Assembly (NCBI GenBank): GCA_021498095.1
Contig: JAIZWK010000001.1
Location: forward strand, 1,890,001 to 1,922,000
Origin: Candidatus Harpocratesius repetitus
GTDB lineage: Archaea > Asgardarchaeota > Lokiarchaeia > Sigyniarchaeales > Promethearchaeaceae
DNA length: 32,000 nt
Reading direction: 5' to 3'
The position numbers were made by a program, and so were the translations under genes. The number at the start of each line of letters is the position of its first letter. Position 1 is the first letter of the stretch. Under the pieces are notes generated by a model. That model did not search any database and had not been told where the DNA came from. It worked only from the letters and a program-made list of their open reading frames with translations. This document shows positions 272 through 5,786 of this stretch, piece by piece.

Positions 272-1198
272 TTATTTTTCTTCTTCTTCATCTTCTGGGA
301 AAATTCTCTTCGCACATTCTGGACAAAGAGAGTGGGTGAACTTAATATTTGAAATCGAAGAAATATATGATTCAATTTGATTCCAATATCCATCATCAGT
401 GCGAACTTTTTTACAGCTTGCGCATATGGGGATCATACTTTTAAGTTTATCAACTTCAAATTCTTTCTGTTTTTTCTCTGTTATATCGACATTACTTGCT
501 CGAATCCCCATGAATTCTCCCGTTTCTGAAATTATTTTAGTAGCAGTATGTGCAATCCAAACAATTTTGCCTGATTTACTTTTAATTCTAAATTCAATTG
601 TTTTTTTATTAAGAGAAAAAAAATTATGAAATAATGGAAGATCTTCAGGGAAAATAATTCGATCTAAAATATTTGGATCTGCATACCCTTCTTCTGGAGT
701 ATATCCTGTGATTGTTTCAAACGAAGGTGATATATACAGAAATCCTTTGATTGGGTGGTACCAATATTCCCAATTAACTGTATATTCGATAAAAAGGCGA
801 AATTTTTCTTCTGATTTAGCAATTTTTTCAAAATTTTCTGCGTTTTGTAAACTGAGTGCTAATACTTTAGTAACTAGAAGTGCAGGGGTAAGATATCGCT
901 TGCGATATTCTGGAAACTTGAAATCTTTCATATAAATAAATCCGAAATGATGTTCATTCCTTTTTATTGGGATAATTAATGCTGTTTCGTTCAATATCCA
1001 CACAAATGGTGTATTTTCAAGTTCACGACAGTGAGATTTTAAGTCTTCTGGAAGTTTCTTATAAAATTCAATAATTTTTGGTGCAAAAAGCATTTGAAAA
1101 ACTTCCTTGCTTTTTTTCAAAATGTTATCTTTTTTTGCAAATTGAGTGATTTTTGTAATCATATCTAATACAAATGCAAAGTCTGCAATCTGGTTCAA
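272..1198 (-). CDS. PAS/PAC sensor protein with an N-terminal GAF-like remnant and a C-terminal CxxC...HxxCxxC motif
   Basis: PAS signature (NWEYW...YISPSFETITGY...EFRIKSKSGKIVWI...GIRASNVDITEKK). The tail IPICASCKKVRTDDGYWNQIESYI...FTHSLCPECA is a conserved Cys-rich terminus familiar from anaerobe sensor proteins. No kinase domain. The TTG start is uncertain. Confidence 0.8.
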   Translation of the reverse strand: MNQIADFAFVLDMITKITQFAKKDNILKKSKEVFQMLFAPKIIEFYKKLPEDLKSHCRELENTPFVWILNETALIIPIKRNEHHFGFIYMKDFKFPEYRKRYLTPALLVTKVLALSLQNAENFEKIAKSEEKFRLFIEYTVNWEYWYHPIKGFLYISPSFETITGYTPEEGYADPNILDRIIFPEDLPLFHNFFSLNKKTIEFRIKSKSGKIVWIAHTATKIISETGEFMGIRASNVDITEKKQKEFEVDKLKSMIPICASCKKVRTDDGYWNQIESYISSISNIKFTHSLCPECAKRIFPEDEEEEK

Positions 1199-1251
1199 TT
1201 CTTGTTCATCTCTGTTTGAAAATGGATTTAAAAAATAAATTTTTTACAATT

Positions 1252-2277
1252 TTAATTTAGTGGATATTTTGCTGAATGATGGAAAAAATGGGAAATTGTG
1301 CTTAAGATTTCATCTGAAACAAAATAAGGAATTTCTCCATGATGATCTGAGACAATGAATCCTTTTCCAGGAGAAATTAAACTCATTAATGCCTTTAATT
1401 CTTTAATTACTTGTGCAGGGGTGGCATGCACCAGATGGATTCCACTAAGATTACCAACTAAAGCTACTTTTTTATCAACTATTTTTAAACTTTCTTTAAT
1501 TTTATCCTGTTTTGAAATACCTACTCCTGAAATGGGTAATTGTAATAACTCTGGAAGAACTTCTTGACAACGACTTGAAGCGAAATGGTAAACAATTGGT
1601 GCTTTGATTTTTGGAAGTATTTCTTTTGCTATTTGATAGCCTGTTTCAATAAATTTTGATTTAGGGATAATAAAAGGACTTGACATTGGATCAAAATAGA
1701 TGATCATAGTAGCTCCCGCTTCAATCTGTCGATTTGCCCAATCTATTGCATATTTTATATTTTTCTTCATTAAATCTTCAAATGTTGATAAATCTTGATA
1801 TAATAATTCTATGTATTTATTAAATCCCATCCGCATTATTGGAAAGGAAAATGGAGAAAGAATTCCTCCTACAACTGGAACTGAATCTCCGAAATATTCG
1901 TGAAGCCCTTTAATTGTTTTTAATGTTTCAATAAATTCAGGAATTTCATCAATTTGCGGTGGTTCTATTGAGATTATTGAATTTGGATTTGATAAGATAG
2001 GGCGCATTGAATTTGGAGGACCATCTGAAAAAAATTTTATTTTTCCTCCCCATGCTTTAAATTCTGCAGCAAAATATGATATCCCAATTACTGCATCATC
2101 TCTATATTGTTTCCAGAGTCTTTTTTGGCCTTCAATCATATACTCTGATTTTGAATAATATTCTTTAATTGATAAATTAAGAATCTTCGCACCATGATGT
2201 GTTAAATTAAGAATGAAAGGGATTCTATCGAGATCATGACATTGTACTGCTGCAAATATACGTTCCATTGAATTCAC
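1252..2277 (-). CDS. Uroporphyrinogen decarboxylase/MtaA-fold protein (methylcobamide methyltransferase-like)
   Basis: MERIFAAV...DRIP, VGGILSPFS, AGATMIIYFDP, LVGNL, PGKGFIVS. Start re-assigned to GTG at 2277 (GGAGG 7 nt upstream; TAGTG overlap with the upstream stop). The ORF-track extension to 2556 overlaps the corrinoid gene and is probably not real. Confidence 0.8.
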   Translation of the reverse strand: MNSMERIFAAVQCHDLDRIPFILNLTHHGAKILNLSIKEYYSKSEYMIEGQKRLWKQYRDDAVIGISYFAAEFKAWGGKIKFFSDGPPNSMRPILSNPNSIISIEPPQIDEIPEFIETLKTIKGLHEYFGDSVPVVGGILSPFSFPIMRMGFNKYIELLYQDLSTFEDLMKKNIKYAIDWANRQIEAGATMIIYFDPMSSPFIIPKSKFIETGYQIAKEILPKIKAPIVYHFASSRCQEVLPELLQLPISGVGISKQDKIKESLKIVDKKVALVGNLSGIHLVHATPAQVIKELKALMSLISPGKGFIVSDHHGEIPYFVSDEILSTISHFFHHSAKYPLN

Positions 2278-2948
2278 TATAATCCCTCCGATGTTGATGC
2301 TTGAGAAGATTGGATTGTTTGAAAATGTTGATCCAAAATAGGTATAATCGAATATGGCGACATTCCTGATCCATCTGCTCCTATTCTTTCCCATAGATCT
2401 GTTTGTAGATTGAATGGAGCACCTCCTACAAAAATTTTGATATTTGGGTTTATTTTGCGAAGAGATTGAATTGTATTTTTTAAATGCTTTGCTGATGCCA
2501 ACATAAGTGTCGATATCAATAGTAGAGTAATTTGCTTTGATGATACATAGTTGCATAACTCTTCTTCAGTAAGTCCAATTCCTAAATTAATAACTTGAAA
2601 TCCTGCCATTCGTAGTGTTGAATTTAAAATTAATAAACCTAGTGCATGATAATCTTCATAAACACAAGTATATACTTTTTTATTCCATTTTTGATTTCTG
2701 ATTGTATCATTATTTTTTGAATTTTTAAGATGTAATTCAATTTCCATTTCTATTAATTTTCCCGCCATATAAACTTGCGACAACGCAATTCTTTCTTGTT
2801 CCCACTTTTTACCTATTGATTCCATTACTGTACGAATAATTCCTAATATTTTTGGCAGTGTAAAATTTTGAGAAAGCATTTTTTGAAAAATATCATGAAC
2901 ATTTTGATAATTCACTTCAATTAATGCTTCCTCTAATTTTTCTTTCAT
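2277..2948 (-). CDS. Cobalamin (corrinoid)-binding protein, MtaC/MetH cap plus B12-binding domains
   Basis: Cap-domain motif (MESIGKKWEQERIALSQVYMAGK) and complete B12-binding motif D-Y-H-A-L-G ... S-T-L-M ... VGGAPF. SD AGGTG upstream. Confidence 0.9.
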   Translation of the reverse strand: MKEKLEEALIEVNYQNVHDIFQKMLSQNFTLPKILGIIRTVMESIGKKWEQERIALSQVYMAGKLIEMEIELHLKNSKNNDTIRNQKWNKKVYTCVYEDYHALGLLILNSTLRMAGFQVINLGIGLTEEELCNYVSSKQITLLLISTLMLASAKHLKNTIQSLRKINPNIKIFVGGAPFNLQTDLWERIGADGSGMSPYSIIPILDQHFQTIQSSQASTSEGL

Positions 2949-3131: not shown

Positions 3132-3314
3132 TTATTTCTCTCCGAAGTAATTGGTCCAACGAACTTTTCTGGCAGGTTTTCGGTATTTCAATCTCATAGT
3201 TTTGCATTTTTTAGTGCAGAATTGATAAATTGTACCATCATTTTTTACATATGTAGTACCAGTTCCTGGGTGAATTTCTTTACCACAATATGAACATTTT
3301 AATATTTTAACCAT
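3132..3314 (-). CDS. rpl24e: 50S ribosomal protein L24e
   Basis: CSYCGKEIHPGTGTTYVKNDG...FCTKKC...RKVRWT. Start placed at ATG 3314, after SD-like GGAAGTGA. Confidence 0.96.
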   Translation of the reverse strand: MVKILKCSYCGKEIHPGTGTTYVKNDGTIYQFCTKKCKTMRLKYRKPARKVRWTNYFGEK

Positions 3315-3361
3315 TTGAATCACTTCCATAAATTCAGAATTTTCTCATTTCTATTGAGTAT

Positions 3362-3784
3362 TTATTCCGAATCTGCCTCCTTTTTTGGAGTAAAGAGTTT
3401 CTCTTTACCATATTTGACAACAACCGTATTGATTTGGGTCATGTTATCGGTGATTTCATTACCTCGTACAATTTTTCTCTTCTTTTCACCTTTATGCTTG
3501 GGATGATAGCAAGGACCTTTGCTTAAAAGAATTCTTTTTTTTACTGGACCGTGCACGTCTCTGCGCATGGGAATTCCGCCAGCATCGCTACCACCAGTAA
3601 TTTTTAACTGATAGCCGGGTAATCCGATAATTCCACCATTAAAGGTTTCACCGATTGCTTTTCCAATTAAAGGTTGAAACTTGGTTGGCTCTAAAACTAA
3701 GACTTTGGTCTGCCCTCGAAATTCTTCTGGGGCATCTTTTCCTGCAGCGGAAATATTTATTTTATAAGTTCCTTCTTCGCTCAT
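3362..3784 (-). CDS. rps6e: 30S ribosomal protein S6e
   Basis: LIGKAIGETFNG...LPGYQLKITGGSDAGGIPMRRDVHGP...GEKKRKIVRGNEI...QINTVVV. Start placed at ATG 3784, after GGTGA. Confidence 0.96.
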   Translation of the reverse strand: MSEEGTYKINISAAGKDAPEEFRGQTKVLVLEPTKFQPLIGKAIGETFNGGIIGLPGYQLKITGGSDAGGIPMRRDVHGPVKKRILLSKGPCYHPKHKGEKKRKIVRGNEITDNMTQINTVVVKYGKEKLFTPKKEADSE

Positions 3785-3799
3785 AATTGTCACCACATT

Positions 3800-3827
3800 G
3801 TCAGGTTGTTATTGAAACAACCCAGAC
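3800..3827 (-). other. Stem-loop in the rps6e leader
   Basis: Minus strand GUC(U)GGGUUGUU-UCAAU-AACAACCUGAC: 11 bp including one G-U pair, plus one bulged U. It ends 15 nt before the start codon. Confidence 0.45.
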
Positions 3828-3992
3828 CGTCCCTCACGAGATAAAATTATACTCAATGTTAGTTTTAATCATCGTTCCTTAGTTTCAGGATTTTGAAGGA
3901 GTGGGTTCTAAATATTAAAATGCAGCAAAATAAAAAAAATTTTGGATTTGTGAAGTTATTATCGCAAATAGAAAATGGATTTACTTCCTTTT

Positions 3993-5786
3993 CTATAAAG
4001 CCCAATATTGAGATTCAATTTTCCGCATGATTTTTACATATTCAATTAAAACATCGACTGTATCAGGCGTTAATTCACTGCGATATTTTGTTCGTAACAA
4101 ACGAATATCTCCTTCAGGTGATCGAATAAATAATTTATCGGTTTCTTGGACATTTCGGCCTAATACAGCTCCTGTAATTGATATTGCGACTTCGTCACCT
4201 TTTTTAGCTGAATGAATTGGCTTGTTATTCATGGTAATTGAATGTAGAGTTCCAACCACTTTTCCATCTTGATTAATCAGTTTTTGTTTTGGAATAATTA
4301 CTCCTCCTTCAACACGGACTCCAACAACCATTGGATTTGATCTTCGGAAGATATACTGAGGTAGTATGCTAATTTTTCCTGGTAAAATTAAATCCTTCAT
4401 CGCTTTTGCTATTTCATCGTTTTTTCTCTTTTCCATATATTCAATATATTCTTCTACAATTTGATAAATCACTGGGCTTGAAAAAATTCGGATTCCTTGA
4501 TTTTGTGCTTCAATTTCAGCATCGGGGAGAATTTTAACGTTAAAACCGCATATTTGTCCTGAATATTCGTCAAGCTCTCGCGCAGCAACAGCATTCATTA
4601 TATCCTTTTTAGTGATTGCTCCAACTTGAGCCTTTCTTATTGGTATCTGATATTGATGAAACAAACCAGCTGCAGCTTCTAAAGAACCCAAAGTATCTGC
4701 TTTTAAAATAATTCCTTCTTCATCTGTGCTAATATTTATGGTTTCAAGTTCTTCTTCAACAGCTTTAATAACTTTTTCAAGATTTTCTTCAGAATCTACT
4801 GCTCTTATAGGTGATCCTGCAACCACATCTTCAATATTAGGTGCTAAAATCTTAACTCCTGCTGCAGCATAAACTACGTCATTTTGCTGGAATTTATTAG
4901 TTGGATCTCGAATTTCATCCATATCTTTTGGAGTTAACAAGGCACGCACATGAGTAGTAATTGGTCCATTTGTGCTTCCCACAACAATTGTCTGCCCTTT
5001 TGCTAGATGTCCATCGAATATAATTGTATCCAATGTCATTCCAAAACCTTGTTCTTTTTTTACTTCTAGGACAACACCTTGAGCAGGACCATCTGTATAT
5101 TTAATTTTATGTTGAAGATATTGTTGTACAATTCCTAATAAAACCATTAACAATGTTGGAATACCTTCTCCTGTTTTAGCACTTGTTGGAACAATAGCAA
5201 GATTTTTAGTGAAATCTGAAATTCGATCATAACGTTCTATTCCAGGAAATCCTTCTTCATAAAATAATCCAATTGTCTCATAAATATATTTGTCGAGAAG
5301 TTCTTTTGCCCATTTGCTTTGTTTATTGTAAGTTTGAATGAAATCAGCATTTGGGATTGATTTCCAACCATCAATTCGATCAATTTTATTTGCCGCGATG
5401 ATAAAAGGTACCTTGCGCTCCCGCAAAATTCGGACTGCTTCCCACGTTGTCTGCATTGGACCTGTTGGCATTTCAATCACTAAAATAGCAACATCTGCTA
5501 CTGCTCCTCCACGCTTTCGAAGGTTCATAAATGCTGTATGGCCTGGAGTATCAATAATTAATAATCCTGGAATGGTTATTTTTTCCCTAAGAGCTTTATT
5601 TGCTTTGCAAAAATCTAATATTTCAGACATTGGGAAAAAGGAGGCTCCGATATGTTGAGTGATACCTGCAGCTTCTCGCTGTTGTACAACTGTCCCCCGA
5701 ATATAATCGAGAAGAGATGTTTTTCCATGATCAATATGCCCTAAAACAGTAATAATTGGTGCTCGAATTTGTTTAGAATGTGACAT
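3993..5786 (-). CDS. infB: Translation initiation factor IF-2 / aIF5B
   Basis: IRAPIITVLGHIDHGKTSLLD, EAAGITQHIGA, DTPGHTAF, ANKIDR, ADTLGSLEA, FRRSNP. Confidence 0.98.
   Translation of the reverse strand: MSHSKQIRAPIITVLGHIDHGKTSLLDYIRGTVVQQREAAGITQHIGASFFPMSEILDFCKANKALREKITIPGLLIIDTPGHTAFMNLRKRGGAVADVAILVIEMPTGPMQTTWEAVRILRERKVPFIIAANKIDRIDGWKSIPNADFIQTYNKQSKWAKELLDKYIYETIGLFYEEGFPGIERYDRISDFTKNLAIVPTSAKTGEGIPTLLMVLLGIVQQYLQHKIKYTDGPAQGVVLEVKKEQGFGMTLDTIIFDGHLAKGQTIVVGSTNGPITTHVRALLTPKDMDEIRDPTNKFQQNDVVYAAAGVKILAPNIEDVVAGSPIRAVDSEENLEKVIKAVEEELETINISTDEEGIILKADTLGSLEAAAGLFHQYQIPIRKAQVGAITKKDIMNAVAARELDEYSGQICGFNVKILPDAEIEAQNQGIRIFSSPVIYQIVEEYIEYMEKRKNDEIAKAMKDLILPGKISILPQYIFRRSNPMVVGVRVEGGVIIPKQKLINQDGKVVGTLHSITMNNKPIHSAKKGDEVAISITGAVLGRNVQETDKLFIRSPEGDIRLLRTKYRSELTPDTVDVLIEYVKIMRKIESQYWAL

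Follow-up and report, generated by a model that had tools for sequence, protein, structure and literature searches.

A 32,000-nucleotide stretch of the genome of the Asgard archaeon Candidatus Harpocratesius repetitus (contig JAIZWK010000001.1, positions 1,890,001 to 1,922,000), here called the window, contains a cassette of three genes that encode a corrinoid (cobamide-binding) protein, a protein of the URO-D/MtaA fold and a sensor protein. We consider it probable that this trio is a B12-protein-based cytoplasmic sensing unit and not a pathway for the catabolism of methyl groups, and that it acts here without a DUF1638 domain or a kinase. Cassettes of this type are widespread among anaerobic bacteria and Asgard archaea, and the window holds a reduced version. 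Its new features are an Asgard host, a lack of DUF1638 in sensor and genome alike, a sensor without a kinase, and a zinc-ribbon output. A first-pass annotation, made from the letters of the window alone, had suggested that the corrinoid and URO-D proteins may report methyl-donor state, or the redox or methylation state of cobalamin, to the N-terminal domain of the sensor, and had proposed a signalling unit rather than a catabolic pathway; the latter proposal is supported by the comparative test described below, which draws on gene linkage and on the variety of sensor outputs.

Searching 301 genomes of the phylum with the URO-D protein, we found close relatives in nine further genomes, with the corrinoid gene directly upstream in those nine. 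The gene 3' of the URO-D gene encodes a full-length orthologue of the window sensor in two genomes of the same genus, a 585-residue histidine kinase in a different family (f2), and histidine kinases of 400-424 residues in three genomes of a third family (f9). Residues 208-356 of the f2 kinase resemble the N-terminus of the window sensor, and its own N-terminus weakly matches DUF1638, giving the order DUF1638-HisKA-HATPase. Sensor orthologues follow the URO-D gene in genomes G089, G094 and G315. When seven cassette sensors were aligned, they had one domain in common, ending in F-P-E-Y-x-x-R-Y-L, which we call the head. A profile of the head, which matches the window sensor at E 1.9e-44, was run on 400 genomes of the phylum, and the hits taken as independent were those in five genomes that had not entered the building of the profile. 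Six strong hits were obtained in these five genomes. Five of them immediately follow a URO-D gene of the cassette type; the corrinoid gene is visible in four of these, and the remaining one is cut at a contig end. The sixth is a solo 193-residue copy of the head (L061:7376-7954; G315:C1, about 2376450-2376848); neither a corrinoid nor a URO-D gene lies close to it, and its genome (G315), a single-contig Lokiarchaeia genome of 6 Mb, also has the full cassette. Three weak hits among f9 and f29 kinases (L063-L065, E about 1e-4) were rejected as members, being generic GAF kinases with no adjoining URO-D gene.

The order corrinoid protein, URO-D protein, sensor was seen in 12 Asgard genomes, with sensors that end in a PAS domain and zinc ribbon, in DUF1638-HisKA-HATPase, or as a histidine kinase; in five further Asgard genomes with cassette sensors devoid of DUF1638, this domain was not found elsewhere either. 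The flanks vary by family, with ribosomal genes in the window, HAD and ADP-ribosylglycohydrolase genes in f2, and a DAO oxidoreductase gene in f9. Since the flanking genes differ between families, we take the trio to be the conserved unit.

The same linkage was observed far beyond the Asgard archaea. Scored against 1.84 billion representative proteins, the head profile gave 987 clusters at E ≤ 0.001 and 465 at E ≤ 1e-10, and in most of the 987 clusters the head starts near residue 205. Among 95 head hits that were scanned for domains, DUF1638 occurs in 60, HATPase_c in 48, HisKA in 44 and GGDEF in 20, and PAS, GAF, REC, STAS and GerE also occur; DUF1638 usually precedes the GAF head, and the outputs behind the head vary. 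Genomic contexts were approached from both ends of the cassette. Starting from the sensor, we found B12-binding_2/B12-binding, URO-D and sensor together in all seven contexts, the genes usually overlapping; these contexts include Dethiobacter alkaliphilus AHT1, a contig with type IV pilin genes, and GGDEF sensors with and without DUF1638. Starting from the URO-D gene, four contexts were fetched, of which one is cut right after that gene, and the full trio is present in all three informative ones (Alkalibacter, Marinilabiliales and a 299-kb metagenome contig). The GAF head was found almost only downstream of corrinoid and URO-D genes. In none of about 20 contexts is the trio accompanied by an adjacent MT1, MT2, RACE or transporter gene, and no conserved DNA-binding partner of the cassette was seen among the 95 scanned hits. 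The first-pass annotation had proposed that homologues of the sensor head should adjoin corrinoid and URO-D genes while their outputs vary, which is what the five Asgard hits and both sets of contexts bear out; it had also held that pairs occurring usually with MT1 or RACE genes and without the sensor would speak against signalling, and for this URO-D clade none was seen. Related pairs without a sensor were found only at L038 and L039, on a divergent URO-D branch that lacks the DxHGE motif of the clade. Literature searches, including one for the zinc-ribbon motif as text, returned no published description or name of the cassette. The dichloromethane cassette mec, a possible known relative, was set aside because its kinase has a PocR input and it carries MtrH and RACo genes.

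The corrinoid protein appears to be fully equipped to bind its cofactor. It matches B12-binding_2 (E 2e-7) and B12-binding (E 2.6e-19) of Pfam, and its motifs are intact: D99-x-H101-x-x-G104, which is the His-on motif, S146-x-L148 and G175-G176. These seven residues (D99, H101, G104, S146, L148, G175 and G176) are invariant across 12 cassette orthologues, so that the complete DxHxxG/SxL/GG signature reported in the first reading extends to the whole set. The protein does not rise above the cut-off of any named subfamily tested, namely TIGR02370 (65.3 against 215.3), MtbC (53.1 against 350), MtgC and MtaC (34.4 against 420), and no helix-turn-helix or other DNA-binding domain is fused to its B12-binding module in Pfam or NCBIfam.

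The second protein belongs to Pfam URO-D (PF01208, E 6.6e-49) and aligns to the methyltransferase MtaA (4ay7, E 6.5e-10), and it was right to call it an atypical member of this fold. The zinc motif H-x-C...C of MtaA is replaced by H-F-A-S-S-R-C and D-H-H-G-E-I-P; H-I-C-G of 4ay7 aligns with H-F-A-S, and D-H-H-G-E-I-P occupies the position of the C-terminal Cys ligand. Its scores against the NCBIfam models are far below the cut-offs: 83.9 against 244 for PRK06252, 80.6 against 400 for MtaA, 77.9 against 235.4 for TIGR01463, 48.4 against 600 for MtbA, and 53.6 against 302.95 for the HemE model TIGR01464. Throughout the cassette clade, archaeal and bacterial, D-x-H-G-E/D-I-P is conserved and the zinc cysteines are gone. 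A non-cassette URO-D paralogue in another Asgard genome (L040) keeps both zinc cysteines, and we therefore regard the loss of the ligands as specific to the cassette clade.

Relatives of the URO-D protein number 210 at E ≤ 1e-10, with about 40% identity among the matches listed, and those that are named come from Anaerolineae, cable bacteria, Marinilabiliales, Alkalibacter, Eremiobacterota and others; this level of about 40% holds from Asgard archaea to Bacteroidota and Firmicutes. In a quick tree, the f1 and f2 Lokiarchaeia sequences, the URO-D protein of the window among them, group together (support 91) inside bacterial clades, and the f9 sequences form a separate long branch. Since the backbone among the bacterial clades is unresolved, no direction of transfer between bacteria and Asgard archaea was read from this tree. 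Database names within the clade (P0294, P0303, P0355 and P0364, from Anaerolineaceae, Marinilabiliales and Lokiarchaeota) include "methylcobamide--CoM methyltransferase MtbA". Organisms such as Anaerolineae and Marinilabiliales are not known to use coenzyme M, and this, together with the missing zinc ligands, makes the MtbA naming probably a systematic misannotation. Two further observations concern the distribution of URO-D genes. In G094, a genome listed under the genus of the window, the cassette proteins are only 36-44% identical to those of the window, and the URO-D protein groups with that of G315, from another genus; this pattern points to paralogy, or to cassettes having been exchanged inside the family. 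Many f2 Lokiarchaeia genomes (L012-L030) have URO-D-like regions of about 25% identity within open frames of about 560 residues, presumably fusion proteins from another URO-D clade.

The sensor consists of a GAF-like head, a PAS domain and a Cys4/His zinc ribbon. Its PAS domain is matched by PAS_3 (residues 154-230, E 2.4e-12) and TIGR00229 (E 3.1e-12), no HisKA or HATPase was found in it with Pfam and NCBIfam, and a fold search with the full-length AlphaFold model (pLDDT 87.6) is dominated by PAS matches, including LOV and PAS structures. The N-terminal domain has no Pfam or NCBIfam match, with no GAF family at E ≤ 0.1, and a word-based search with the first 135 residues returned one near-identical protein; the family emerged only by profile. 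When these 135 residues were folded alone from an 80-row alignment (pLDDT 89.9, predicted template modelling score 0.81), the model compared by VIA gave Z 14.1 and a root-mean-square deviation of 2.9 over 135 residues to the PDE6 GAF domain 3jab_B and Z 13.2 to the KdpD GAF domain 4y2f_A, and nearly all VIA matches listed were GAF domains; Foldseek matched it to the Lcd1 GAF domain 5w10 at E 4.7e-4. The predicted structure is thus that of a divergent GAF fold. Within it, the FQMLFAP segment comprises residues 34-40 and F-P-E-Y-x-x-R-Y-L residues 95-103, and a long helix spans residues 96-139 of the sensor model. Y102 is the sole invariant residue of the head, L37, G86 and L115 are nearly so, and there is no conserved cysteine.

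The last 65 residues of the sensor form the zinc ribbon, with the arrangement C259-x2-C262...H289-x2-C292-x2-C295. No Pfam or NCBIfam model matches it, and the ESM Atlas has only unnamed clusters for it, all with scores below 0.9. Its relatives number 136 proteins at E ≤ 0.01, and the 118 listed from outside the lineage of the window are 49-69% identical. The ribbon is always C-terminal, behind REC, PAS, GAF, HAMP, Cache, 4HB_MCP or other input domains; it closes 15 of the 150 best GAF-head proteins, and two proteins of about 420 residues (P0024 and P0040) consist of DUF1638, head and zinc ribbon with no further output domain, as confirmed with Pfam. From this distribution, the ribbon reads as a conserved output-type domain. 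The sensor had been described at first as a PAS protein without a kinase that ends in CxxC...HxxCxxC; these features all stand, with the correction that the sensor does have an output, its C-terminal ribbon being a widespread domain of the output type. The only other copy of the ribbon in the host genome (G000:C1:1119413-1119589, equal to L076:1890-2657, minus strand) is fused to VUPS, a vitamin uptake-like sensor domain (PF20973).

The host genome is a single contig of 4.36 Mb with a completeness of 93.6% as estimated from marker genes, and gene 2 of the cassette is the only URO-D gene found in it. As first noted, there is no MT1 or RACE gene within the cassette of the window; furthermore, RamA/RACo, MtrH and MttB had no match in the whole single-contig genome, MtaB being outside this search. 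For DUF1638 the whole genome likewise gave no match. CbiD and CobS were not found either, and the host is for this reason probably an importer of finished cobamides, that is, an auxotroph. Several B12-binding proteins are still encoded, among them a MetH-like open reading frame of 820 residues (C1:3196682-3198157), the C-terminus of which is not of the size of a reactivation domain; there are also two other pterin-binding proteins, of 441 and 612 residues. No methyl-transfer pathway could be assembled from the genes found. With this gene content, the host looks like a cobamide auxotroph without a known corrinoid reactivation system. Two other Lokiarchaeia genomes with the cassette also gave no RACo match, but in the three f9 cassette genomes RACo is present away from the cassette.

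Because the elements of the trio are constant and everything behind the head varies, we read the corrinoid and URO-D proteins as the signal-perceiving part and the head as the receiver. The corrinoid protein would carry the signal in its cobamide, through methylation, through the oxidation state of the cobalt (Co(I), Co(II) or Co(III)), or through being loaded or empty. The URO-D-like protein, a relative of MtaA without the thiol-activating zinc site, would dock on the corrinoid protein and set or edit its state, and the divergent GAF head would read the pair and relay what it reads through the long helix and the PAS domain to the zinc-ribbon output. A more specific form of this idea, which we put forward tentatively, is a non-photic, enzyme-coupled B12 switch, in which the URO-D protein, answering to a methyl donor or an oxidant in the cell, writes or erases a methyl group or a redox state on the corrinoid protein, and the specialised GAF head reads that state and drives kinases, cyclic di-GMP synthases or a universal zinc-ribbon output. 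We infer that the proteins touch one another, and likewise what they sense and what the output does. A regulator dedicated to a single operon would not be expected to carry a GGDEF or zinc-ribbon output. In Phaeobacter, genetic evidence connects DUF1638 with a stand-alone B12-binding protein and its function, and DUF1638 also co-occurs with a RamA-like protein (bioRxiv 10.1101/192971; PMC12478193); this link, taken with the fusion of DUF1638 to the head in most members, fits direct contact between sensor and corrinoid protein. When the three partners (corrinoid protein, URO-D protein and GAF head) were co-folded from separate alignments, in a run made without controls, the score was 0.00, which we weigh neither in favour of binding nor against it.

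Several points weigh against a sensing unit. All the support for it is comparative, and a GAF head that sensed a small-molecule substrate of the pair would produce the same strict co-occurrence. The URO-D protein is highly conserved, which points to a working enzyme, and some catalytic methyl transfer by the pair therefore probably occurs. Enzymes of the URO-D family can be substrate:corrinoid methyltransferases in O-demethylase systems, and MtsA performs both half-reactions; given these precedents, a two-protein enzyme is conceivable, and the two pterin-binding proteins of the host could be methyl acceptors. Furthermore, the GAF head of the window is short, with a core of about 95 residues, and it is not clear whether a ligand pocket is retained. 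Finally, genes 2 and 3 are separated by 53 bp with an oligo-T run within the spacer, so that co-transcription of the sensor gene with gene 2 is not certain.

A rival explanation is an ordinary small methyltransferase system, in which the URO-D protein methylates the corrinoid protein at the expense of a substrate (for example a methoxylated aromatic, a methylthiol or a methyl halide), the acceptor enzyme is encoded elsewhere, and gene 3 is a regulator that responds to the substrate. MtsA, MtvB and MsmS provide precedents for such an arrangement, and in Methanosarcina sensor kinase genes adjoin those of corrinoid methyltransferases. All cobamide ligands are present in the corrinoid protein, the URO-D protein is as conserved as a working enzyme would be, there are pterin-binding proteins to hand in the host, and the f9 cassette genomes do carry RACo elsewhere. 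We nevertheless think this explanation unlikely. None of the roughly 20 contexts places an MT1, MT2, RACE or transporter gene next to the trio, the flanks vary, and the outputs extend to GGDEF, zinc ribbons and hybrid kinases with no conserved DNA-binding partner. In addition, the zinc site for thiol methylation has been lost, the host genome has no match to RamA, MtrH or MttB, and the failure to find CbiD and CobS argues against cobamide synthesis by the host and makes a B12 pathway of high flux unlikely.

MtaA-type enzymes pass methyl groups to zinc-activated thiols, and this raises the idea that the sensor itself is the substrate: the pair would methylate or demethylate one of its residues, for example a zinc-bound Cys of DUF1638 or of the zinc ribbon, and this methyl mark, rather than the corrinoid state, would set the output, as in Ada-type methyl switches. 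It would account for an enzyme that has no zinc ligands of its own in the company of partners with conserved cysteine clusters, four Cys in the DUF1638 family consensus and Cys4/His in the ribbon. We regard it as improbable, in that many cassettes, such as those with f9 kinases, have neither DUF1638 nor the zinc ribbon, the GAF head, which is the sole constant part, has no conserved cysteine, and no methyl donor is known.

B12-binding domains serve as light and B12 sensors in CarH and AerR, and a corrinoid protein that reports photolysis of its upper ligand or cobamide availability, with the URO-D protein as scaffold, would be in keeping with the probable import of cobamides by a host in which CbiD and CobS were not found and with the weak match to the CarH model NF052513 (E 4e-7); we hold it very unlikely, since that match reaches 29.6 bits against a cut-off of 400, a pure scaffold would need neither about 40% identity across domains of life nor a conserved D-x-H-G-E, and the named carriers include anaerobes (cable bacteria, Dethiobacter and Lokiarchaeia, for example) that live in the dark.

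A cytoplasmic sensing unit of this kind has partial counterparts among known systems. In the MtaC/MtaA, MtbC/MtbA and MtsB/MtsA pairs of methanogens, as in the cassette, a small DxHxxG corrinoid protein made of a cap and a Rossmann domain is encoded beside a TIM barrel of the URO-D fold; unlike those pairs, the cassette lacks H-x-C...C, no MT1 or RACE gene was found near it and no RACE gene in the genome, and a signalling protein always follows. With CarH/LitR and AerR/PpaA it shares the use of a B12-binding domain as the signal-perceiving element of a regulator. In these systems the B12 domain lies within the regulator or antirepressor, there is no methyltransferase-like partner and the signal is light or B12, whereas the B12 protein of the cassette is separate, paired with an enzyme-like protein and placed ahead of GAF-headed sensors. 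In H-NOX/HahK and NosP/NahK, a small cofactor protein encoded just upstream governs a kinase or diguanylate cyclase in which no ligand domain is obvious, and the range of outputs is similar; the cassette differs in that its cofactor is a cobamide and not haem, that it has an extra enzyme-like protein, and that the receiver is a specific GAF variant, usually with DUF1638. The MsmS/RdmS sensor kinases of Methanosarcina can also be set beside the cassette as archaeal GAF/PAS sensors encoded near corrinoid methyltransferase genes (MtsD/F/H); they bind haem, form separate transcription units with Msr regulators and control catabolic enzymes. In Phaeobacter inhibens, the stand-alone DUF1638 protein (PF07796) PGA1_c13340 occurs with a split methionine synthase and a RamA-like protein (bioRxiv 10.1101/192971; PMC12478193). 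As in that system, DUF1638 in the cassette family is tied to a separate cap and B12-binding protein, here by fusion in front of the head in 60/95 hits; unlike it, the sensor of the window begins directly with the GAF head.

If the trio is a sensing unit, cobamide chemistry would serve cytoplasmic signalling in the dark, beside its roles in catalysis, riboswitches and light sensing, and the cassette would represent an undescribed input module for signal transduction common to bacteria and Asgard archaea, found in numerous bacterial phyla as well as in the archaea that are nearest to eukaryotes. The Asgard form would then indicate that the GAF head alone, without DUF1638 or a known corrinoid reactivase, suffices for coupling. 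What the window adds is that the GAF head, and not DUF1638, would be the constant receiver, that the module, if our reading is right, works where no known corrinoid reactivase or cobamide synthesis genes were found, and that one of its outputs would be a highly conserved zinc-ribbon domain for which there is no family model.

The features of the cassette are collected in Table 1. The window has a G+C content of 30% and its genes are archaeal; the nearest database proteins, 90% identical for the sensor and 87% for the URO-D protein, are those of Candidatus Harpocratesius sp., and the genus belongs to the Asgard family Promethearchaeaceae. The arrangement first described, three co-oriented genes with the first two overlapping at TAGTG, was confirmed in its coordinates and at the junction, with the cassette read on the minus strand from 2948 to 272. 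The stop codon TAG of gene 1 occupies 2279-2277 and the GTG of gene 2 occupies 2277-2275, so that the G is common to both codons, and a Shine-Dalgarno-like GGAGGG lies just 5' of this GTG. In the protein database, gene 2 of the same or a near-identical genome (P0283) is called from an ATG three codons further downstream. We prefer the overlapping GTG, because the closest relatives have an ATG at that position, with an ATGA overlap. For gene 3, the residues that begin at the TTG already fit the consensus of the N-terminal domain family.

Table 1. Genes of the cassette and domains of the sensor, in window positions.
Feature	Position	Strand	Remarks
Corrinoid (cobamide-binding) protein, gene 1	2277..2948	-	223 aa; helical cap and Rossmann domain (Pfam)
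URO-D/MtaA-fold protein, gene 2	1252..2277	-	341 aa; GTG start; Pfam URO-D
Sensor protein, gene 3	272..1198	-	308 aa; TTG start; Pfam, NCBIfam, AlphaFold model
Sensor aa 1-135, predicted divergent compact GAF domain and signalling helix	794..1198	-	model of the domain alone
Sensor aa about 140-245, PAS domain (PAS_3/PAS_9 type)	464..781	-	Pfam, TIGR00229, fold matches
Sensor aa about 245-308, Cys4/His zinc-ribbon module	272..466	-	C259, C262, H289, C292, C295

The neighbours of the cassette differ from family to family, as described above, and two of these settings deserve mention. In the three f9 genomes (L034:5972-7285, L035:1894-3204 and L037:5869-7182), a divergently oriented FAD-dependent oxidoreductase of the DAO family, 437-438 residues long, is encoded just upstream of the cassette, and this linkage could be either synteny at the level of the family or a functional link. 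In the window, the cassette is flanked by translation genes in the same orientation (minus strand), with aIF5B, S6e and L24e upstream at 3132-5786 and the start of L7Ae downstream at 1-97, and in G089, a genome of the same genus, S6e is also found upstream of the cassette.

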